Assembly: GCA_963802335.1 (NCBI GenBank)
Contig: CAWDIE010000002.1
Coordinates: forward strand, 172,629 to 236,628
Length of the DNA: 64,000 nucleotides
DNA from: an uncultured Planctomycetota bacterium
GTDB lineage: Bacteria; Planctomycetota; PLA2; JAEUHO01
Direction: 5' to 3'
Each line of letters begins with the position of its first letter. The stretch's first letter is position 1. This document shows, piece by piece, positions 10,497-43,929 of this stretch. Position numbers and translations under genes: made by a program. The notes beneath the pieces were generated by a model, which was given only the letters and a program-made list of their open reading frames with translations, was not told where the DNA came from and ran no database searches.

Positions 10497-11567
10497 TCAG
10501 GAGCGGACGCGCGAGCGGGGAATGACACGCTTCGGAGGTGGCGTCGCCTCGGCCGGGGGCTGCGAGTACGCCATCGGACGTGCTTCGGTCTCCAGGCCGG
10601 AAGTCCTGATCTCGCCCTCCTCGTCCGAGCTCCAGGTGAGCGCGAGCACCAAGGGGAAGGTGCCCAGCGAGACCAGCAGCATGAAGCCGCTGACCGCCTC
10701 CAGAGGAAGATGGAGCCAGCCCTGCGCCACGCGGACATAGTCGTTGGTGAGGCCGAAGGAGCCGTTCGTCATGTAGAGCGCGCGCGCTGACTCCGTGAAC
10801 GTCAGGCCGGCCGTCAGGACGACGTTGCGGACCAGCAGGAACCAGCCCACGCACGCGTAGAGGGGGCGTTCGGCCTCGTGCTCGATGGCCTCCCCGGTGC
10901 GGGCCCGCCAGAGGAAGATCCCGGCGAAGACCAGCTCGCCGAGGTGGCCGGAGAGCAGGAAGCCCACCTCGCGGATGCCCTCGAAGAACGTGAGCAGGGG
11001 CCAGAGGACCAGCAGGCCGATCGCAAGCGCGCCAAACCGCCCCTGCTGACGCGCGATCACGACACCCGCGACGAGGCCGAGGCCGATCAGCGCCATGATG
11101 ACGGGGTTTTGCGGCTGATGGAACGCCGCGGCGTGCCCGCGAAGGCTGATGGCCGGCCACGCGGGGCAGCCTACGAACCACGAATAGACCACGTGCCCGG
11201 TCTCGTGGAAGAGAGAGCCGATGAACCAACCCATGAAGCGAAGCGTCGGCGTGAGGGTGAACGCGAGTGCCAGAACCATGCCGATGATCAGGTACCGCCA
11301 CCCGACTGCGATCTGCGGGCCCCGCCGCCGAATCGCCGCAGGCAGGGCGACCTCCAGGTGCGGCCGTCCCGGCGTCGTCCAGACCTGGCCGGGCGCGGGA
11401 GGAGGCGACGCCGCGTACACCGACGTCGGGGACACCGGCGCGGGGGCGGCGGACGCGGGAGGGCCATCCAGGTGCGACGCGCGGCCGCGTAGTACACCGC
11501 AGAGGCCGCAGTGGGTGGCGTCCTCCTCGTCTCGTGCGTAGCCGCAGGTGGTGCAGGGGGTGCCCAT
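10497..11567 (-). CDS. Zinc-ribbon membrane protein with HExxH (M50/site-2 metalloprotease-like)
   Basis: N-terminal CTTC...CGLC; LFHETGH within a hydrophobic segment; several TM helices; TND candidate third ligand. Confidence 0.72.
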   Translation of the reverse strand: MGTPCTTCGYARDEEDATHCGLCGVLRGRASHLDGPPASAAPAPVSPTSVYAASPPPAPGQVWTTPGRPHLEVALPAAIRRRGPQIAVGWRYLIIGMVLALAFTLTPTLRFMGWFIGSLFHETGHVVYSWFVGCPAWPAISLRGHAAAFHQPQNPVIMALIGLGLVAGVVIARQQGRFGALAIGLLVLWPLLTFFEGIREVGFLLSGHLGELVFAGIFLWRARTGEAIEHEAERPLYACVGWFLLVRNVVLTAGLTFTESARALYMTNGSFGLTNDYVRVAQGWLHLPLEAVSGFMLLVSLGTFPLVLALTWSSDEEGEIRTSGLETEARPMAYSQPPAEATPPPKRVIPRSRVRS

Positions 11568-11643
11568 CGAGTACCTGATCGACCGGCGGGGGCCTGTGAG
11601 TCAATGAACTCTCAACCGGCTGCGAAGGGCTCCTTGACCTGAC

Positions 11644-12351
11644 CTAGCGTGATCCAGTATCCGAGGCGATCGCCTCCGCGATGGCCACGCCCGACGACGT
11701 ACCGAGTCGGGTTGCGCCGGCTTGAAGCATGGTGCGAGCTGCTGCGAGCGTGCGAATGCCTCCCGAGGCCTTGACGCCGAGATCGGGGCCGACCGTGCGG
11801 CGGAGCAGGCGAACCGCCTGTACCGAGGCCCCGCCGGCACCGAATCCGGTCGACGTTTTCACGAACGCGACGCCCGCGTCCTGAGCCACGCGCGCCGCGC
11901 GCACGACCTCGTCCTCCTCGAGCTGGGCGGTCTCCAGGATTGCCTTCACCCCTCGACCCTCCGCCGCTTCGACGACGGCCCTCACATCCTCGGCGACCGC
12001 CCTCCAGTCGCCTTCCTTGAGGCGGCCCAGCGGGACGACCATGTCGATCTCGTCGGCACCGAGCCGAACGGCATCACGGGCCTCGAAGGCCTTGGTCGCC
12101 GTCGTCGTCGCGCCTAGTGGAAATCCCACCACCGCGACGGCTCGCACGGCAGATCCACCCAGCGCCTCATGCACCCGTTGGATCCACGACGAGGCGACGC
12201 AGACCCCGGCAAAGCCGTACACGAGCGCCTCTCGGCACAAGCGATCGACATCCACCGACGTCGTATCGGCTCGAAGCGCTGTGTGGTCGATCGTCGCCAG
12301 CAAGGACGACGCTTCACCCGCCTCCGGCGGCACGCGGCTTTCGCTCGGCAA
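11644..12351 (-). CDS. deoC: Deoxyribose-phosphate aldolase
   Basis: IDHTAL, VGFPLG, GADEIDMV, KAILET, VKTSTGF, VKASGGIR and RLGTSSG motifs. TTG start chosen from the GGAGGAG RBS. Confidence 0.95.
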   Translation of the reverse strand: MPSESRVPPEAGEASSLLATIDHTALRADTTSVDVDRLCREALVYGFAGVCVASSWIQRVHEALGGSAVRAVAVVGFPLGATTTATKAFEARDAVRLGADEIDMVVPLGRLKEGDWRAVAEDVRAVVEAAEGRGVKAILETAQLEEDEVVRAARVAQDAGVAFVKTSTGFGAGGASVQAVRLLRRTVGPDLGVKASGGIRTLAAARTMLQAGATRLGTSSGVAIAEAIASDTGSR

Positions 12352-12653
12352 CCTCGCGCTCCTCCTCCGTGCAACACGCTCCTCCGTGCGACACGCATGC
12401 ACAGGAGCTTAGGAGTACCACGTGACCACGTCCGCCTTCCAAGGAAGGCGTAGGTCCAGGCCCGACTAGCGCCTTGCCAGCCCTGAGGTCGCCCTGAGGT
12501 GGCCCCCAGGTGGGACCCGTGTGGCCACGGGGGGCGCACGGGTTGCCCAAGGGTCGCGTCGACATGGTCCCGGGGATGGTCCTGAGCTGACCCTCTCGTA
12601 ACCACCGCTGACCCTCAGCGGGCCGGGCCGGGCTCCTGTCTGATCTTCCCTCG

Positions 12654-12990
12654 CTATGGCGGATCCGGGTCGGATGGCGGGCGGGTGTGCGGCCGTCGCG
12701 GGGCTTGGGTGGCCTGCGAGGCCTGCAGGGCCCGCGAGGCTTGCGGGGCCTGCGCGGCCTGCTCGCAGCGGGGGGGGGGCGCGGGTGCGACGGCCATGGC
12801 CTCGGGCTGGGGCTCGTAGCGGATCTTGCGGCGATCGGCGCGGATGAAGGGCACGAACAAGACACGAGCAAGCGGGGCCGACACCCCCGAGAGGCCTGAT
12901 ACATGGGGGCGGGGGCGCCGCCACCTCTGCCTCCGCGCCCGACCCGCGCTTCTGCTTCTTGCCGCGGCGCGTCGCTACGACGCTCGACAC
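12654..12990 (-). other. Possible small hypothetical protein, apparently frameshifted near the C-run at about 12905
   Basis: Plausible peptide pieces in two frames (SSVVATRRGKKQKRG... and ...LARVLFVPFIRADRRKIRYEPQP...QAPQASRALQASQATQAP); no recognisable family. Confidence 0.25.
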
Positions 12991-13090
12991 GTCGATGCGA
13001 CCCGGACGCCCAACCGGCTACATCGAAGATAGGAATCTTCGCTTTCCCGACGCGCGCCATCGACCGACGCAACCGTCCTACCCCACCGTC

Positions 13091-14245
13091 CTACGCCATG
13101 GACCGGATGCGCCGCGCGGCGTCGACCACCCACGACGCCGCGCGACGCACCTCGTCCTGCGTCGTGCGGCGGCCGAGGACGAAGCGGACGCTCGAGTCCG
13201 CCGAAGTCTTGTCCACGCCCATGGCTCGAAGTACCGGGGATGGCTCCATCGTGGCGCTCGCGCACGCCGACCCCGTTCCGAACGCGACCTTGCCTGCGCC
13301 GAGAAGGAGGGCTTCGGCCTCGACGCCGGGGAGGGTCAACGTGGAGACGTCGGGCAGCCGGGCCGAAATGCTGCCGAGGATCGTCGTGCCGTCGACGCCG
13401 TCGACGACGGCCCCCTCGAGATGGTCGCGCAGGCCCGCCACCCGGATGCTGTCCTCCTGCCTCTCCTCGCGCGCGATCTCGGCCGCGCGGCCCAGCCCCA
13501 CGGCGCCAGGCACGTTCAGCGCGCCACCGCGCCGGCCCCTTTCGCCACCGCCGCCATGGATGAGCGGCTCGAGCCGCACGCGCGGCTTGCGGCCGCGGAC
13601 GTAGAGGGCACCAATACCCTTCGGACCGAAGAGCCGTCCACCGGAGAGGCTCAGCAGATCCACGGCGAGGTCTTGGACATCCAAAGCGATCCAGGCGGCC
13701 GCGGCGGCGGCGTCGGTGTGGAGGTAGGCGGGATGGTCGGCTAGCGCGGTGGCCAGTTCCGCAAGAGGTTGGAGGGTTCCGACCTCATGGTTGGCGATCT
13801 GCAGCGAAACCAGGATCGTGTCGTCGCGAAGCGCTTCCAGGATGGCGTCGATGTCGATCCGCCCCTGCGCGTCCGACCCTACGGCCGAGACCTCGAAGCC
13901 CCGCTTGGCTAGCCACGCACAACTCTCACGGACCGACGCCCGCTCGATCACCGACGTGATGACGTGCCGTCCACGCGCCTCCCGGGCCCAGGCCGTGCCC
14001 TTGATCGCGAGGTTGTCGGCCTCGGCCCCGCCCGACGTGAAGACGACGTCCCGGGGCGCGGCTCCGATGAGATCCGCCACGTGTGCCCGGGCGGTCTCCA
14101 CGGCTTGCTCGGCGTCCCAGCCGAACGCGTGCTGCCCGCTCGCGGGGTTGCCGTAGCGGTCGGCCAGGAACGGGGCCATGGCCTCGAGTACCCGTGGATC
14201 GACGGGGCTGGCGGCCTGATGATCGAGGTAGACGAAGTCCTTCAT
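13091..14245 (-). CDS. IscS/NifS-family cysteine desulfurase homolog with a degenerate PLP site
   Basis: YLDH, YGNPAS, FTSGGAEADNLAIKG, NHEVG, GPKGIGALY and GSAC are conserved, but SGHK reads SGGR, EH reads ER and DAxQ reads DAAA. Confidence 0.88.
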   Translation of the reverse strand: MKDFVYLDHQAASPVDPRVLEAMAPFLADRYGNPASGQHAFGWDAEQAVETARAHVADLIGAAPRDVVFTSGGAEADNLAIKGTAWAREARGRHVITSVIERASVRESCAWLAKRGFEVSAVGSDAQGRIDIDAILEALRDDTILVSLQIANHEVGTLQPLAELATALADHPAYLHTDAAAAAAWIALDVQDLAVDLLSLSGGRLFGPKGIGALYVRGRKPRVRLEPLIHGGGGERGRRGGALNVPGAVGLGRAAEIAREERQEDSIRVAGLRDHLEGAVVDGVDGTTILGSISARLPDVSTLTLPGVEAEALLLGAGKVAFGTGSACASATMEPSPVLRAMGVDKTSADSSVRFVLGRRTTQDEVRRAASWVVDAARRIRSMA

Positions 14246-14334
14246 GCATCCGGAGGATACGCCCTGGCAGGGCGGATCCCGCCCCCCGGCTACAATCGGG
14301 GAACTGCAGTCATCCCTCGCGAGGTACGTCGCCC

Positions 14335-14664
14335 ATGTCCATCACACTCACCCCCAAGGCCGCCGAGAAGGTGCGCCAACTCATGACCCAGCCCGACCAG
14401 GAGGGCGCGACGGGCCTCCGTGTCAAGGTGGTCGGCGGTGGGTGTTCGGGCCTCAGCTACAACATCGCCCTGGAGCGCGAGGCCGGGGACGGCGACAAGG
14501 TCATCGAGTCCGAGGGGATCACGATCTACATCGATCCCAAGAGCGACCTGTTCATCAACGGCACGAAGATCGACTACCACGAGTCCATGATGGGCTCCGG
14601 CTTCGCGTTCGAGAATCCCAACGCAACCGGTGGCTGTGGTTGCGGCAGCTCCTTCAGCGCCTGA
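14335..14664 (+). CDS. iscA: A-type Fe-S cluster carrier (IscA/ErpA/HesB family)
   Basis: GGGCSGLSY and NPNATGGCGCGSSF motifs. Confidence 0.95.
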   Translation: MSITLTPKAAEKVRQLMTQPDQEGATGLRVKVVGGGCSGLSYNIALEREAGDGDKVIESEGITIYIDPKSDLFINGTKIDYHESMMGSGFAFENPNATGGCGCGSSFSA

Positions 14665-14665
14665 C

Positions 14666-15280
14666 TTGAGTACGGCGCTCAAGCACTTCCTCGAGCGGGC
14701 GGCGGCCGACCATCTGGGGTCGTTCGACCTGTGGTTCCCCTCCTGCTTCGCTTGGCGGGCACTCTGCGCCGATTTGCCCGCCATGCTCGAAGCGAGCGGG
14801 CGCCCTCTGCCCGAGGACGAAGCCGATACGCGGGACCTCGTGGCGACGGCAGGCGCCGTGTTCCGTGCCGGGCACCTCTTCACGCTCGTGGTGCTCGCCG
14901 CGGCCGCCGAAGGGCAGCGCGATCCCCAAGAGGTGCTCGACCACTTGACCGGGAGTCTCGACGACGACGAAGAGGCCCACTTCGAGGCCGCTGTGGGCGA
15001 GGCCCTCGGCGACGTCGAAGCGCTTCTCCTCGATGCCAGCCCGCCTGCCGCGAGCGAGACGGCGCAGGAGGCGGCGCAACTCGTGCGGGTCTCCTGGCCG
15101 GCGGTGGAGCACCTGCTCGGGAGCGATGAGGGCCGACTGTTCGAGCAGGCCGGAGAGGCCGCGCCCCTGCTCTGGAGCATGGCGCGCGTCGGAGCCATCC
15201 TCGCTGCGTTTCGCTGGATGGCGGCTGCGGCCCTGGTCGACGACTGGCCGCAGCTCGAGCCGGGCGAACCGGCCGCTTGA
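14666..15280 (+). CDS. Hypothetical acidic helical protein
   Basis: TTG start 1 nt after the iscA stop; open frame with typical codon usage; no motif recognised. Confidence 0.6.
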   Translation: MSTALKHFLERAAADHLGSFDLWFPSCFAWRALCADLPAMLEASGRPLPEDEADTRDLVATAGAVFRAGHLFTLVVLAAAAEGQRDPQEVLDHLTGSLDDDEEAHFEAAVGEALGDVEALLLDASPPAASETAQEAAQLVRVSWPAVEHLLGSDEGRLFEQAGEAAPLLWSMARVGAILAAFRWMAAAALVDDWPQLEPGEPAA

Positions 15281-15444
15281 TCCCGGCGGGGCCCGTGTCC
15301 GTGGATCCCCGCCTTGCCCCGACGGACGGTCGGCCCACGCGCGTCCCCGGGCCCGCCACCCGGCGGGGGTGACGGGGGGGCGCGACACCGGCGCGGACGC
15401 GGGTAGCATTCCCCTCCTCCGAAATTCCTTAGCGAGAGAGATCC

Positions 15445-16416
15445 ATGAGCGAGACCCAGGTCGAGAAGGTCACCATCATCGGTAGCGGGCCCGCCGGCTG
15501 GACCGCGGCCATCTACGCAGCCCGCGCCTCGCTGGATCCCCTCGTGTACGAGGGCGCGCCGAGCCAGCAGATGATCCCCGGCGGTCAGTTGATGTTCACC
15601 ACCGAGGTGGAGAACTACCCCGGCTTCCCCGATGGGGTCGATGGCAAGGAGATGATGAAGCTCTTTCGCGACCAGGCGGCCCGCTTCGACACCCGCATCG
15701 TGACCGACGACATCGTCGAGGTGGACTTCAGCCAGCGCCCCTTCACGCTCAAGAGCGGCGAGGGGTACGAGATCAAGACGCACACCGTCATCATCGCGAC
15801 CGGTGCGAAGGCCAAGTGGCTGTGGCTCGACAACGAGCAGCGACTGGCTCAGTCCGGTGGGGGCGTCTCGGCCTGTGCCGTGTGCGACGGCGCACTGCCG
15901 GCGTTCCGTGACCAGCACCTGGTGGTCGTCGGTGGCGGGGACACCGCCATGGAAGAAGCCCACTACCTGACCAAGTTCGCCTCGAAGGTGACGATCGTCC
16001 ACCGTCGCGACGAGCTGCGTGCCAGCAAGATCATGCAGGACCGCATCCTCAAGAGCCCCAAGGTCGATGTGGCGTGGAACAGCCAGGTGACCGACGTGTT
16101 CGGGGATCCTGTCATCTCGGGGGTCGAACTCACGGACACGCAGACGGGTGAGAAGCGCAATCTCGACTGCAAGGGCCTGTTCATCGCGATCGGCCACGAG
16201 CCCAACACCAAGTTCTTGGGTGGGGCGATCACCACCGACGAAGATGGCTATCTCGTTCTGGAGGACGTAGCCAAGACCACCACGAACGTCGACGGCGTGT
16301 TCGCCGTCGGCGACGTGACGGACAAGGTGTACCGTCAGGCCGTCACCGCCGCGGGCATGGGATGCAAGGGCGCCCTGGACGCGGAGCGTTGGCTGGCAGC
16401 TCAGGGCATCGAGTAG
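15445..16416 (+). CDS. trxB: Thioredoxin-disulfide reductase
   Basis: IIGSGPAG, GGQL..TTEVENYPG, CAVCDG, GGGDTAMEEA, HRRD and YRQAVTAAG motifs. Confidence 0.97.
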   Translation: MSETQVEKVTIIGSGPAGWTAAIYAARASLDPLVYEGAPSQQMIPGGQLMFTTEVENYPGFPDGVDGKEMMKLFRDQAARFDTRIVTDDIVEVDFSQRPFTLKSGEGYEIKTHTVIIATGAKAKWLWLDNEQRLAQSGGGVSACAVCDGALPAFRDQHLVVVGGGDTAMEEAHYLTKFASKVTIVHRRDELRASKIMQDRILKSPKVDVAWNSQVTDVFGDPVISGVELTDTQTGEKRNLDCKGLFIAIGHEPNTKFLGGAITTDEDGYLVLEDVAKTTTNVDGVFAVGDVTDKVYRQAVTAAGMGCKGALDAERWLAAQGIE

Positions 16417-16445
16417 CGCCGCCCCGTACCTCGACGCAGCCTCGT

Positions 16446-17652
16446 CTACGGCATCGGGACGAGCGAGTAGATCTTGCCGCCTTCGTACGAGCAGACGTAG
16501 AGGTCTCCGTTGGCGTCCTCGGCCAGGGACGACGGGCTCTGCACCTTCGCCACGGTGCGGAAGTCCCGTCCCTGCCCCGAGGAGACGTCGATGGTGTAGA
16601 TGGAGCCGCGCCCGATGTCGGGCCAGACGTAGCGACCCTTCAGCGTCGGGCAGCGGGGGCCACGGCTGATCACCCCCCCGATGCCCGCGGTGAGGTCGTC
16701 ACCGTCGTCGCGGAGGTACTCGAAGACGGGCTTCACGAACGCCTGACCCTGTAGATTCGCGGGAATCGGTTCCATCGGCCGCGTGCCCTCGAAGAAGGGC
16801 CACCCGTGGTTCTTGCCCTTCTCGATCCGGATCACGGACTCGTGGCATCCCGGCCCCTTGGTCGCCGGCTCCGTCGTCCAGAGGTTGCCCTGGGCGTCGA
16901 ACGAGCAGCGCCAGGGATTGCGCATGCCGTAGGCCCAGATCTCCCGGCGCACCCCTTGCTGGACCGTGGCCCACGGGTTGTCGGCGGGAATTGCGTACGG
17001 CAGTCCGGGATCGTTGCGGTTCACGTCCAGCCGCAGGATCTTCCCCAGCAGGTTGTTGGGGTTCTGGGACGTCTGGACGGCTTCCTTCTGCTTGGCGTTG
17101 TCCCCCGTGCTCATCCACAGCATGCCGTCGGGGCCGAACGCCAGCCAGCTGCCGTTGTGCATCGCGAGGCTCTTCGGGACGTAGAGCAGCGCGCGCTCCG
17201 TGGCGACGTCACACGCCTGCCCGTTGGTGCGGAACTCGGACAGCACCACGTGGAAGCCCTGCTGCGGGTTGCCCATCACGTAGGTGACGTAGATCTTGCG
17301 ATTCTGGGCGTACTGGGGGTGGAACGCGAGGCACTGCAGACCGCCCTGGGCTCGCGGGAAGACCTTGGCCGACAGGTCGAGAAAGAGCGACGGCTGCGGC
17401 ACGGGACCCTGACCCGACCACGAGGCGATGCGCTTGACCTTGCCGCCCTGTTCGAGGACGACCCAGGCGCCACGGCCTCCGGGCTCGGGCACGATCACCA
17501 TGGGCTTTTCGAACGTGACGCCCGGCCACGTCTCCGCGAGGCCGATGCCGCCGAGGGGCTCCGGGTCGGCGGCACGCGCCGGCGTGGCCAAGGCCAGCAC
17601 CGCCGACGATGGCGATCGAGAGGAGGGCGAGACGCGGGGGCGAGACCGGCAT
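16446..17652 (-). CDS. PQQ-dependent sugar dehydrogenase (glucose/sorbosone dehydrogenase beta-propeller), secreted; probable 1-nt frameshift near 17604
   Basis: AFHPQY, HNG..LAFGPDGML, GKILRLDV and WAYGMRNPWR motifs. Removing one G joins signal peptide MPVSPPRLALLSIAIV to AVLALATPARA-ADPE. Confidence 0.85.
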
Positions 17653-38320: not shown

Positions 38321-38552
38321 CTTGGGTCTCCTTGCGGGGCCTAGGACCTTACCTCTGGATGCGGGACGGATTCAACGTCGCGTCGAGGGGCCGCCGCCGC
38401 GCCAGGACCGCCTTCGGGTGTCGTGAGAACGAGCGGTGCCCCGCGGCACCGCCGGCCACGACGGGGGGATGGTAGATTTCCATGCGCGGCCACGGCGGCT
38501 CTCCCCCGTGCCCGGTCATCGGCCCCTCCTCTCGTGGAACCGGACCCCCTCC

Positions 38553-40259
38553 ATGCATGCTCCGACCCTGTCCTTCGAGTACCTGCGGCAGCAGATCGTC
38601 GGCGTCGATTCGACGTTCGAGACGCCCTTCGGGCGGCGCATGATGGTCTACTGCGACTACACCGCGTCCGGGCGTTGCCTCAACTTCGTCGAGCGCTACC
38701 TCCAAGGGTTGCAGCGGATCTACGCCAACACGCATACGGAGGACGATCGGACCGGGCGGAGCATGACCCAGCTCCTTCACGAAGCCGAGGCCAGCATCAA
38801 GCGGGCCGTCAACGCGGGCCCCCACGGACGTCTGATCGCCTGCGGGACGGGGGCGACGGGAGCCATCGACAAGTTCCAGCAACTGGTCGGGGTCGCGCTG
38901 CCACCCGTCACGCGTGACCGCTTGCGTGCCAAGGCGCAGGCCTTCTTGGGCGAGGACAAGGTCGCCGAGTTCCAAGCGTTCCAGCGCGACCAGCAGACGG
39001 TCGTGTTCGTCGGCCCCTACGAGCACCACTCGAACGAGGTGTCGTGGCGAGAGGGGCTCGCCACGGTCGTCGATGTCGGGCTGCTTCCGGACGGCGGGAT
39101 CGATCTGGAGCACCTCGAGGCATTGCTGAAGGATCCGCGTTACCTCGACCGCCCGCGCATCGGCTCGTTCTCGGCGGCGTCCAACGTGACCGGCATGCGT
39201 TCGCCTGTGCCTGAGATCGCCCGCCTTCTGCACCGGCACGGCGCGATGGCCTGCTTCGACTACGCGGCCAGCGGGCCCTACGTCCGGATCGACATGAATC
39301 CGGCGGACGATCCCGAGGCTGCGCTCGACGCAGTCTTCATTTCGCCGCACAAGTACCTGGGGGGGCCCGGGTCCAGTGGAGTCCTGGTCTTCAACGAGCA
39401 TCTGTACCGACGCGATCTGCCGCCGAGCGTGAGCGGCGGAGGAACGGTCGACTACGTGAGCCCGACCGATCAGGACTTCGTCCGGGACATCGAGGAGCGG
39501 GAGAAGGCGGGCACGCCCGGCGTCCTGCAGACCCTGAAAGCGGCCCTTGCGTTCGAGGTCAAGAACGCGGTGGGCGTGGACCGCATCGAGGCGCGCGAGA
39601 CCGAGCTGCTCGAGCGTGCCATCGGACGCTGGCAAGCGCACCCGCGCATCGAGATCCTCGGCAATCCCGACCCCAGGCGTCGCGTGAACATCGTGTCCTT
39701 CAATCTCCGCGATGCATCGGGCCTCTACCTGCACCCCAAGCTCGTGACCGTGCTCCTGAACGACCTGTTCGGTATCCAGTCCCGGGCCGGGTGCTCATGC
39801 GCGGGACCGTATGGACACCGCCTGCTCGGCATCGACCAAGACACATCCGAGGCCTACCGCGCCTGGGTTCGGAAGGGGTACCAGGGCATCAAACCCGGTT
39901 GGTGCCGCGTGGGTTTCCACTACGTGATGGACGATTGCGAGGCCGACTACGTCCTGCAAGCCGTCGAGTTCCTCGCGGAGCACGGCCACCGGTTCATGCC
40001 GCTCTACACCTTCGATGCGGGCACCGGTGCCTGGACGCACCGCACGTTCGATGAGTCGGAAGAGCGATTCTCCCTGGAGGCGGCCCTCGAGTACGCGGAC
40101 CCGACGGAGACGGCGCTTGCCTCCGACATACGACGCCACGTCTATGCGTCCTACCTCAACGAGGCGACGCGCCTTGCACAGGAGCTCGGTGAGCCTGAGC
40201 CGTCCACCCGACCCGATCTCCAGGAGACCTTCGGCGACCTGCAGTTCTTCGCCTGCTGA
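38553..40259 (+). CDS. Class V PLP-dependent aminotransferase / SufS-like cysteine desulfurase family
   Basis: DYTASGR, YANTH, YEHHSN, SNVTG, SPHKYLGGPG (PLP Lys intact) and RAGCSCAGPY motifs. Confidence 0.9.
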   Translation: MHAPTLSFEYLRQQIVGVDSTFETPFGRRMMVYCDYTASGRCLNFVERYLQGLQRIYANTHTEDDRTGRSMTQLLHEAEASIKRAVNAGPHGRLIACGTGATGAIDKFQQLVGVALPPVTRDRLRAKAQAFLGEDKVAEFQAFQRDQQTVVFVGPYEHHSNEVSWREGLATVVDVGLLPDGGIDLEHLEALLKDPRYLDRPRIGSFSAASNVTGMRSPVPEIARLLHRHGAMACFDYAASGPYVRIDMNPADDPEAALDAVFISPHKYLGGPGSSGVLVFNEHLYRRDLPPSVSGGGTVDYVSPTDQDFVRDIEEREKAGTPGVLQTLKAALAFEVKNAVGVDRIEARETELLERAIGRWQAHPRIEILGNPDPRRRVNIVSFNLRDASGLYLHPKLVTVLLNDLFGIQSRAGCSCAGPYGHRLLGIDQDTSEAYRAWVRKGYQGIKPGWCRVGFHYVMDDCEADYVLQAVEFLAEHGHRFMPLYTFDAGTGAWTHRTFDESEERFSLEAALEYADPTETALASDIRRHVYASYLNEATRLAQELGEPEPSTRPDLQETFGDLQFFAC

Positions 40260-42729: not shown

Positions 42730-43929
42730 ATGACCTCGGCTGCCGATCAACGCCTCCTCCTCGTCCACTACGCCGAGATCGGCCTCAAGCGTGGGCACCG
42801 TGTCAGCTTCGAGCGGCGGCTTCGCGATCGGCTGAATGAAGGGCTCAAGAGCGCGGGCATCGACGTCGGCGCCTCCTACGTCGGGCGGCGGTACCTGATC
42901 CGGATCCCCTCCCCGGATCTCTTCCCCCGGGCACTCGAGGTCGTTCGGCGCATTCCCGGCGTGGCGAACGTACAGCCCGCCTATGCCGTGCCAAGCGACC
43001 TGGACGCGATCCGGGACGCGGCTTCCCGAGCGCTGCTCGAGGCACCGCCGGGTTCGTTCAAGGTCGAGACCCGCCGCTCCTGGAAGAACTTCCCGCTCAA
43101 CTCCATCGAGATCAGCCGAGCCGTGGCGCCTGCCTGCCTCGAAGCGACGCAGCGCGAGGTCGACGTCCATCACCCCGACGTCACCGTGCGCGTCGAAGTG
43201 ATGAAGGAAGCCACCTACGTCAGTGCCGGGCGTCTCCAAGGAGCGGGCGGACTGCCCGTCGGCAGCACGTCGCGCCTCCTGTCCTTCCTCTCCGGGGGAA
43301 TCGACAGTGCCGTCTCCACGTGGATGATGGTCCGGCGTGGCGCCCGCGTCACCGCGGTCCACTTCCACAACCGCACGCACGAAGGCAACGCCGTGCTCGA
43401 CAAATTGGAGGACACCTGCGGCGTCCTGGCCTGGTCGTCCGGGCGGATGCCTTTGCTCGTCGTGCCTTTCGAAGCGTGTCAGCGGGCGCTCGTCGCCACC
43501 GTGCCGGCCGAGTACCGAATGATCTTGTATCGCCGCGCCATGTTCCGCATCGCGGCGGGACTGGCGGTGCAGGAGAAGGCACTCGGCTACGTGACCGGGG
43601 ACAGCCTGGGGCAGGTCGCGAGCCAGACCGCGGAGAACCTGCGCACCATCCACGCCGTCGCCGACCTGCCCGTGTACACGCCCCTCGCCGGCAGCGACAA
43701 GGTCGAGATCGTCGATCGCGCCCGTCGCATCGGTACCTTCGACATCTCGATCCGTCCGCACGCCGACTGCTGCTCGTTCCTGATCGCTCCCCACCCGGCC
43801 GTCAAGAGCACGGTGGAAGAAGCAGAGCGCTACGAGGAGGGCGTGGACTGGGCGTCCCTGGTCGCCGAGGCGGTCCAAGGCACCGAACGCATCGTCTATG
43901 CGCCCGACCCCTCGGTCTTGCCCGCCTGA
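42730..43929 (+). CDS. thiI: tRNA 4-thiouridine synthase (THUMP + PP-loop, no rhodanese domain)
   Basis: YAEIGLK, GGLPVG, SGGIDS, TGDSLGQVASQT and DCC motifs. Confidence 0.95.
   Translation: MTSAADQRLLLVHYAEIGLKRGHRVSFERRLRDRLNEGLKSAGIDVGASYVGRRYLIRIPSPDLFPRALEVVRRIPGVANVQPAYAVPSDLDAIRDAASRALLEAPPGSFKVETRRSWKNFPLNSIEISRAVAPACLEATQREVDVHHPDVTVRVEVMKEATYVSAGRLQGAGGLPVGSTSRLLSFLSGGIDSAVSTWMMVRRGARVTAVHFHNRTHEGNAVLDKLEDTCGVLAWSSGRMPLLVVPFEACQRALVATVPAEYRMILYRRAMFRIAAGLAVQEKALGYVTGDSLGQVASQTAENLRTIHAVADLPVYTPLAGSDKVEIVDRARRIGTFDISIRPHADCCSFLIAPHPAVKSTVEEAERYEEGVDWASLVAEAVQGTERIVYAPDPSVLPA

Follow-up and report, generated by a model that had tools for sequence, protein, structure and literature searches.

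A predicted IscS-type protein without its pyridoxal phosphate site, apparently retained by selection and encoded divergently from iscA in Planctomycetota

IscS is a hub of sulfur trafficking, and roles of this protein that do not depend on catalysis are known from one archaeal case, in vitro. As described in two papers (PMC7585200; PMC13066941), IscS of Archaeoglobus fulgidus carries Asp in place of the Schiff-base Lys, is inactive, and supplies its loop Cys as the fourth ligand of a [2Fe-2S] cluster on IscU; IscS1 of Methanosarcina acetivorans, which is without the catalytic Lys and paired with IscU1, is suggested in the former paper to be similar. The present analysis concerns a bacterial protein with a related loss: the product (P0001) of a gene designated iscS*, on the minus strand of a stretch of 64,000 nucleotides from an uncultured Planctomycetota bacterium (contig CAWDIE010000002.1; this whole stretch is "the window" below). 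An earlier inspection of the letters alone (the sequence-only reading) had proposed a pseudoenzyme in which residues contacting pyridoxal phosphate (PLP) are replaced and the persulfide cysteine is retained. From alignments, phylogeny and a structural model we conclude that iscS* is predicted to be a folded, selected IscS-type protein without its PLP site, and we put at roughly one in two the probability that it descends from IscS, has lost catalysis, is maintained by selection and acts as an accessory Cys-loop or docking partner in Fe-S and sulfur trafficking.

Like A. fulgidus IscS (IscS2), iscS* joins the class I fold to absence of the Schiff-base Lys and retention of the loop Cys; unlike it, iscS* is bacterial, its Lys is replaced by Arg (by Arg, Leu or Thr in its clade) rather than by Asp, and His104 and Asn155 are gone as well (residue numbers are those of E. 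coli IscS unless given for P0001). The archaeal protein is encoded and complexed with IscU, whereas iscS* adjoins an A-type carrier gene and SufU is encoded on another contig. Absence of the catalytic Lys is likewise common to iscS* and M. acetivorans IscS1, by the description of the latter, which differs in being archaeal and paired with IscU1. With E. coli IscS and human NFS1 the iscS* clade has in common the Cys328 loop, Arg354, Trp45 and the Arg220/Arg223/Arg225 patch, but iscS* is without the PLP-holding residues and lies in no iscRSUA-hscBA-fdx operon. The C-terminal helix of the E. coli enzyme, Arg379-Lys391, binds IscU (PMC2854127); it is mostly gone in iscS*, which ends at the Ser384 position, the median tail in the clade being 5 residues compared with 23 in E. 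coli, and active orthologs from a sister family are likewise short of most of it. Those canonical sister-family proteins (L025-L029, L031, L035, L036, L039) resemble iscS* in their divergence from iscA, short C-terminus and 42-48% identity, with lengths of 377-398 amino acids (L039, 439); they differ in keeping His104, Asn155, Gln183 and His205-Lys206, and in having no orf216 or trxB beside iscA.

Because P0001 scores higher against NFS1/IscS (340 bits) than against A. fulgidus IscS (286-288 bits), and because its nearest canonical relatives are planctomycete, the sequence comparison points to a loss of Lys independent of the archaeal proteins. Lys-less IscS is already known in archaea, and that precedent lowers the novelty of the clade; new in relation to it are the bacterial host, the linkage to an A-type carrier without IscU, a sequence of decay in which His104 and Asn155 went early and position 206 then changed at least 11 times, and a comparison of three states at one locus (active, dead but kept, lost). 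A literature search that did not cover subscription papers found no bacterial or planctomycete clade of Lys-less IscS described.

Fold and pyridoxal phosphate site of iscS*

The claim of a full-length, unframeshifted IscS homolog holds. The frame is open throughout from an ATG start and encodes 384 amino acids; Pfam PF00266 (Aminotran_5) spans it end to end (2.8e-63, residues 5-368), and its top matches among solved structures, NFS1 and E. coli IscS, align over residues 2-383 without a frameshift (E ~1e-100; 43-44% identity). The Lys-less IscS of A. fulgidus (4eb5, 4hvk, 4r5f) matches at E ~1e-84. The best NCBIfam models are those for IscS, NifS and DndA, each scoring under its curated cut-off: the IscS model NF010611 gives 407 bits with a cut-off of 548, and the other IscS/NifS equivalog models, TIGR02006 and TIGR03402, give 396 of 643 and 387 of 531 bits, so that none is reached. 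AlphaFold2, given a 60-row alignment, yields a model that has a mean predicted local distance difference test score (pLDDT) of 94.1 and superposes on NFS1/IscS with template modelling (TM) scores of 0.95-0.97 and on A. fulgidus IscS with 0.94. Only the Cys loop, residues 328-332, has pLDDT below 50, which agrees with a flexible loop, the tip of the IscS loop being reported as disordered (PMC2854127). Measured against class I desulfurases, iscS* has the fold (fold type I, aminotransferase class V, by full-length homology), Asp180 (its D178), Arg354 and a Cys on a long mobile loop (GSAC328AS), whereas Lys206, His104, Gln183 and Asn155 read Arg, Arg, Ala and His. Alignment to IscS of E. coli K-12 (annotated record NC_000913) places these and other positions as follows.

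13091..14245, minus strand: iscS* (P0001), 384 amino acids, IscS fold, PLP site decayed, Cys loop kept
14024..14026, minus strand: Ala74 (GCC), position of Thr76
13940..13942, minus strand: Arg102 (CGG), position of the ring-stacking His104
13787..13789, minus strand: His153 (CAT), position of the pocket Asn155 (VNNE reads ANHE)
13703..13705, minus strand: Ala181 (GCC), position of Gln183, which hydrogen-bonds the PLP phenolate
13691..13693, minus strand: Trp185, position of Lys187 (codon place calculated from the start of the coding sequence)
13637..13639, minus strand: Gly203 (GGA), position of His205
13634..13636, minus strand: Arg204 (CGG), position of the Schiff-base Lys206
13520..13522, minus strand: Ala242 (GCG), position of Thr243
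13262..13264, minus strand: Cys328 (TGC), on the flexible loop

The motif changes named in the sequence-only reading were all recovered: SGHK reads SGGR through changes at both His205 and Lys206, EH reads ER, DAxQ (DATQ in E. coli) reads DAAA, and RSGT reads RGGA, with Ser241 to Gly and Thr243 to Ala, while FTSG, GPKG and GSACAS are intact (FTSGATE reading FTSGGAE). Three changes come in addition to those it had listed, Thr76 to Ala, Asn155 to His and Lys187 to Trp; Ala75 to Gly, Gly186 to Ala and His235 to Gly also distinguish the protein from E. coli IscS, and Asn154, Glu156, Asp180, Ser203, Arg240, Cys328 and Arg354 are kept. That such replacements are not read errors, as had been argued, is upheld because CGG lies two base changes from any Lys codon, because the nearest relative (P0002) has the same pattern, and because contigs of near-identical strains, where they overlap the gene, differ from it almost exclusively at third codon positions.

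In canonical enzymes Thr76, His205 and Thr243 bind the PLP phosphate. Roles in binding PLP or substrate are described in PMC9978102 for His104, which stacks on PLP, for Asn155, Lys206 and Cys328, for Asp180 and Gln183, which contact the pyridine N and the phenolate, and for Arg354, which contacts the substrate carboxylate. The same source reports that E. coli IscS loses desulfurase activity on the changes H104Q, D180G, Q183E, K206A and C328S. Among the sites H104, Q183, K206 and D180, iscS* has replacements at the first three, and adds at least four more at PLP-contact positions. With His104, Asn155, Gln183, His205, Lys206, Thr76 and Thr243 all lost, iscS* should neither form an internal aldimine nor hold PLP, and should accordingly be unable to make persulfide from cysteine. 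The earlier proposal of a pseudoenzyme unable to desulfurate cysteine, yet retained with its Cys loop, is thus favoured by sequence on both counts: the sites replaced include three whose change kills E. coli IscS, and the gene appears to be under purifying selection (below).

A working desulfurase or lyase that uses PLP or pyridoxamine phosphate non-covalently, or takes another route, we consider distinctly improbable. E. coli K206A binds some PLP and is reported to have very low turnover (PMC9978102), and D180 and R354 are kept in iscS*; but Lys206 has been lost jointly with His104, Asn155, Gln183, His205, Thr76 and Thr243, and at three of these sites one change alone suffices to abolish activity.

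Selection and history of the clade

The iscS* clade was recovered with support 100 in a FastTree phylogeny of 93 rows and in an IQ-TREE quick phylogeny (LG+G4) of 75 rows, the trait columns being left in the alignment. Both trees were built without the partial rows L023, L033 and L037 and the duplicate L011, and the smaller also without 18 paralog and distant rows. The clade holds 50 rows, or 44 distinct sequences, over which residue counts are given; a clade-profile search at 50% identity reduced it to one representative (P0031) and is not usable for clade size. The nearest relative of P0001, P0002, is 84% identical, also has 384 amino acids and has the whole replacement pattern in common with it; further relatives fall to 50-60% identity. 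Among the best 120 database hits, Lys206 is absent in 25 (20 Arg, 5 Leu), His104 in 38 and Asn155 in 36, and Cys328 is present in all 120.

A clade sharing the change of Lys to Arg, which the sequence-only reading had suggested seeking, was found: position 206 holds Arg in 22 of the 44 members, Leu in four, Thr in three and Lys in 15. His104 is kept in one of 44, Asn155 in none, Gln183 in 13 and His205 in 29, and the 75-row tree calls for a minimum of 11 changes at position 206 and 12 at position 104. From these counts it is likely that His104 and Asn155 were already lost at the base of the clade and that the many replacements of Lys206 came afterwards. Forty-eight positions are invariant in 92 canonical sequences, six of which (N35, H104, N155, Q183, G186, K206) are lost in the clade; of the 132 positions with conservation of 90% or more in that set, 24 no longer have the residue in the clade. 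Loss of Lys206 recurs elsewhere in the superfamily, as judged from P0046 and P0089 (His104Gln, Lys206Leu), which form a separate pair within the canonical clade, and from the nearest 50%-identity representatives, 149 others, of which eight are without it. Two of these eight, P0128 and P0160, seem to belong to the planctomycete clade itself; Lys206-less lineages outside it are P0046, P0089, P0121, P0136, P0217, P0219, P0238 and P0248, with patterns such as His104Gln with Lys206Leu or Met, or His205Asn with Lys206Asp.

Other parts of the protein have held. Cys328, Arg354 and the docking-surface residue Trp45 are each present in all 44 clade members, Glu309 and Glu311 in 42 each, and Arg220, Arg223 and Arg225 in 41, 41 and 43, compared with 74%, 86% and 49% of the canonical set. 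The docking surfaces of IscS have been mapped in E. coli (PMC2854127), and by residue conservation they are kept or tightened in the clade.

The old motifs are also surrounded by residues peculiar to the clade, namely K187W in 42 of 44 members, A75G in 40, M151Q in 39, N35H in 37 and K105R in 35, with D79 in all 44; D180, E156 and R354 are retained besides. The former PLP site might on this evidence have been re-purposed to bind another ligand or a metal, making the protein more than an adaptor: a sensor, a carrier or a new enzyme. We hold this to be unlikely, though these conserved pocket residues leave more room for it than there is for the less likely readings of residual activity, of a heterodimer and of a pseudogene. 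The window protein itself deviates from the pattern (N33 and not His, A103 and not Arg, and D196 at a position that is His in 31 of 44), and the replacements at PLP contacts vary between members (Q, A, S, H or V at Q183; H, A, P or Q at N155), which looks like decay and not like a new fixed site.

Whether the gene is under purifying selection, another point raised by the sequence-only reading, was assessed in three ways, and each gave an answer consistent with constraint. Ratios of nonsynonymous to synonymous substitution rates (dN/dS) are NG86 estimates, YN00 being unusable on most pairs for saturated dS. They come to 0.116 for L020/L023 (His-Arg type, 96.5% amino acid identity), 0.087 for L032/L046 (Glu-Thr type, 92.3%) and 0.102 for L015/L033 (Asn-Lys type, 90.4%), compared with 0.21-0.29 for the three closest canonical pairs of the sister family (86-89% identity). 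The window's own lineage was assessed from the protein differences between P0001 and P0002, with conservation taken from the other 42 clade members. There are 61 differences across 384 gap-free columns, falling on four of 103 sites at least 90% conserved and on 31 of 94 sites less than 50% conserved (Mann-Whitney p=1.4e-10); the window protein retains the clade consensus at 100 of the 103 conserved sites. In neutral, substitution-only simulations run to the divergence of P0001 and P0002, a stop codon was gained in 87% of 300. Finally, two DNA sequencing runs supply contigs of near-identical strains over parts of the gene; in this small sample five of six differences are synonymous, the sixth being M333V; differences within iscS* fall almost only at third codon positions.

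These data bear on the idea of a pseudogene on its way out, held open by chance in a genome of 70% G+C, which we judge highly improbable. In its favour, the gene is gone from six genera of the family, decay at the site is most advanced in the window copy, and long spurious open reading frames abound in the window DNA. Telling in the other direction are the gap-free, full-length alignment to a relative at 84% identity with differences that avoid conserved sites, dN/dS near 0.1 in clade pairs, the synonymous strain differences and the confidently predicted fold. The gene has no frameshift, stop or truncation, and no relaxation of selection was seen in the clade pairs, between P0001 and P0002 or among the strain differences.

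The order to which the window belongs is represented by 40 species genomes in two families, 29 in its own and 11 in the sister family. The clade protein occurs in 16 of the 29 own-family genomes, in 10 of 16 genera. Twelve of these carriers are without Lys206, and the other four keep it and have Asn205 together with Asn or Gly at position 104. The remaining six genera (genomes 55-93% complete) yielded nothing closer than a distant paralog (37-43% identity); at eight loci in seven genomes of genera without iscS*, a search for its remnants beside iscA gave chance hits only (E>=2.7), and there the row GSDH-trxB-orf216-iscA is intact with iscS* cleanly absent. In the sister family, the best hits examined come from 10 of 11 genomes; His104 and His205-Lys206 are present in every one, nine adjoin iscA, and the eight sister-family rows on the 75-row tree also keep Asn155 and Gln183. 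Because the sister family thus keeps a canonical enzyme at the same place, the ancestral state, as read from these sequences, is an active IscS divergent from iscA. Within the own family iscS* adjoins iscA(-orf216-trxB) in 13 of 16 carriers; in genus g16 it comes after trxB instead, and the contig of G010 also has iscA and trxB. Genome G020 has two dead-type copies (L017, L058; G020:C7:636735-637877 and G020:C2:755288-756412), in one of which Lys206 is Leu and in the other Arg; the second copy has a changed Cys loop, AAGPECGV, and is not close to any iscA.

A possible role beside the A-type carrier

The sequence-only reading had placed the gene divergent from iscA and near trxB, as is indeed the case:

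14246..14334: iscS*-iscA divergent intergenic region, 89 bp
14335..14664, plus strand: iscA, A-type Fe-S carrier (IscA/ErpA-like, PF01521) with the invariant Cys residues C37, C101 and C103
14630..15280, plus strand: orf216, conserved acidic protein (isoelectric point 4.2), predicted all-helical, a single Cys invariant
15445..16416, plus strand: trxB, thioredoxin-reductase-like flavoprotein, end of the conserved iscA-orf216-trxB row

A scan of positions 12300-15500 found no promoter or terminator, Rfam gave no match at E<=0.1 over 11500-16500, and the iscS*-iscA intergenic regions of eight loci do not align (34% column identity). The Orf216 protein has an isoelectric point of 4.0-4.9 in 17 orthologs and is modelled confidently as an all-helical bundle (pLDDT 92.8). 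It belongs to no Pfam family and gave no usable Atlas hit and no Foldseek match at E<=0.001, and its best VIA Z, 5.5, is less than helical bundles attain by chance; orf216 was not seen next to iscA in three sister-family loci examined. Searching with tblastn, using E. coli IscU and the genome's own NifU_N-like protein, revealed no IscU-like gene at E<=1e-3 in the window and 23 related loci. That NifU_N-family protein (116 amino acids, 1.1e-20; G000:C1:104977-105324, equivalent to L042:1486-1836, minus strand) has relatives in 29 of 29 family genomes and appears, judged by eye, to be without the third cluster-ligand Cys of IscU. A complex prediction for iscS* with IscA returned no answer (score 0.00) and is neutral either way. 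Exact-match contigs from two metatranscriptome runs cover positions 13804-13945 in iscS* (X11) and 14530-14807 in iscA/orf216 (X10); they are fragmentary, and DNA carry-over is possible.

We propose that the dead iscS* descends from an IscS ancestrally divergent from iscA, with the fold, the Cys328 loop, Arg354, Trp45 and the Arg220/223/225 patch kept, and that it may still dimerise and dock IscS-like partners. Cys328 would either ligate a nascent Fe-S cluster or relay, through its thiol, sulfur that another enzyme has mobilised. Since iscS* should be unable to make persulfide, that sulfur would have to come from SufS of the SUF operon or from an intact NifS/IscS-like paralog, and iscS* would feed the adjoining A-type carrier module iscA-orf216-trxB. 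Ligand or relay to IscA, Orf216 and TrxB is our guess from the precedent of the A. fulgidus Cys ligand taken together with a linked A-type carrier and no IscU. The part played by iscS* would be accessory, because six genera have lost it and kept iscA-orf216-trxB.

Several observations weigh against this proposal. The genes iscA and orf216, each present in 26 of 29 own-family genomes, persist together in genera without iscS*, which implies that IscA does not need it; nor does the presence of any gene among iscA, orf216 and the NifU_N-like gene (29/29) track that of iscS*. Conservation and the archaeal precedent together make up the whole case for the suggested part of Cys328. Arg220, present in 41 of 44 members, is replaced by Gly in the window protein. 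Pocket residues remain (Asp180 in 41 of 44, Glu156 in 43, Arg354 in 44), such that the pocket could still bind something, and among the 15 members that keep Lys206 five also keep His205, where some chemistry might remain.

An extended form of the re-purposed site, which we again consider rather unlikely, sees in the clade a PLP-free IscS fold with a rebuilt pocket, in which the near-invariant Trp187 and Asp79, Gly75 and Gln151 adjoin Asp180, Glu156 and Arg354, all three kept. Together with Cys328 this pocket would hold a small Fe-S cluster, a metal or sulfur, and the protein would work with Orf216, the A-type carrier and thioredoxin reductase in a previously undescribed, thiol-based module of Fe-S repair or delivery. 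Lys206 would then have been freed to drift, which fits its at least 11 replacements.

The sources of sulfur that an accessory, catalytically dead iscS* would require are present in the genome. A row sufB-sufD-sufS-sufU, including SufU, lies on contig 7, with a second SufS on contig 8; and the second, intact IscS/NifS-type gene that the sequence-only reading had suggested looking for exists at G000:C8:445216-446328, where it keeps His104, Asn155, Asp180, Gln183, His205-Lys206, Thr and Cys and is 45% identical to iscS*. This paralog also suggests another use for a dead subunit. IscS enzymes are obligate dimers whose active site uses Thr243 of the other subunit, and iscS* could be a regulatory or structural partner heterodimerising with the intact protein of the same genome. 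We find this improbable: a second hit at 44-46% identity occurs in only four of 16 carrier genomes (G000, G008, G020, G009), and G014, which is 90% complete, has no other hit at E<=1e-40, both of which weaken the idea; in the window's genome, moreover, the two genes lie on different contigs.

Taken as an accessory protein or otherwise, iscS* is part of a natural experiment in which the same locus holds an active enzyme (the sister family), a dead-but-selected protein (ten genera) or nothing (six genera). A comparison of these three arms, with the Lys206-keeping members included, could bring out the function that the IscS body and Cys loop have by themselves, and could also reveal the order in which the PLP site decays. 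Public records label proteins of the clade "cysteine desulfurase", and the sulfur-mobilising capacity of these genomes is thereby overstated.

Other sulfur genes and adjoining regions

Two further genes of sulfur metabolism noted in the sequence-only reading are present in the window as described. The intact class V enzyme, at 38436-40259 on the plus strand, has 607 amino acids, the Lys (SPHK) and a long C-terminal extension. The ThiI without a rhodanese domain, at 42730-43929 on the plus strand, comprises ferredoxin-like, THUMP and PP-loop domains, and for want of the rhodanese domain needs an outside persulfide donor.

Nearer to iscS*, the 690 bp between deoC and the gene (12403-13090) have no Pfam or Rfam match and only Arg/Pro-rich open reading frames, which are probably spurious; strain contigs diverge more densely there (nine differences in 131 bases) than within iscS*. 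Beyond it, at 10497-11567 on the minus strand, lies a gene for a predicted membrane protein of 356 amino acids and no Pfam family, with an N-terminal Cys-x2-Cys ... Cys-x2-Cys.

Elsewhere in the genome, a SufS-type desulfurase on contig 8 (L002; G000:C8:336446-337555) sits in an open frame of 770 amino acids, some 360 upstream residues of which are rich in Pro, Ala, Ser and Glu and look disordered, a layout that we take to resemble that of encapsulin cargo desulfurases. A third class V paralog lies on contig 3 (G000:C3:760830-761960). Its group (L047, L048, L050, L052, L054; genus g5) drifts at the same sites in genera that have lost iscS*: in these relatives His104 reads Tyr and His205 reads Val, Pro or Ile, and in L052 Lys206 has become Asn.

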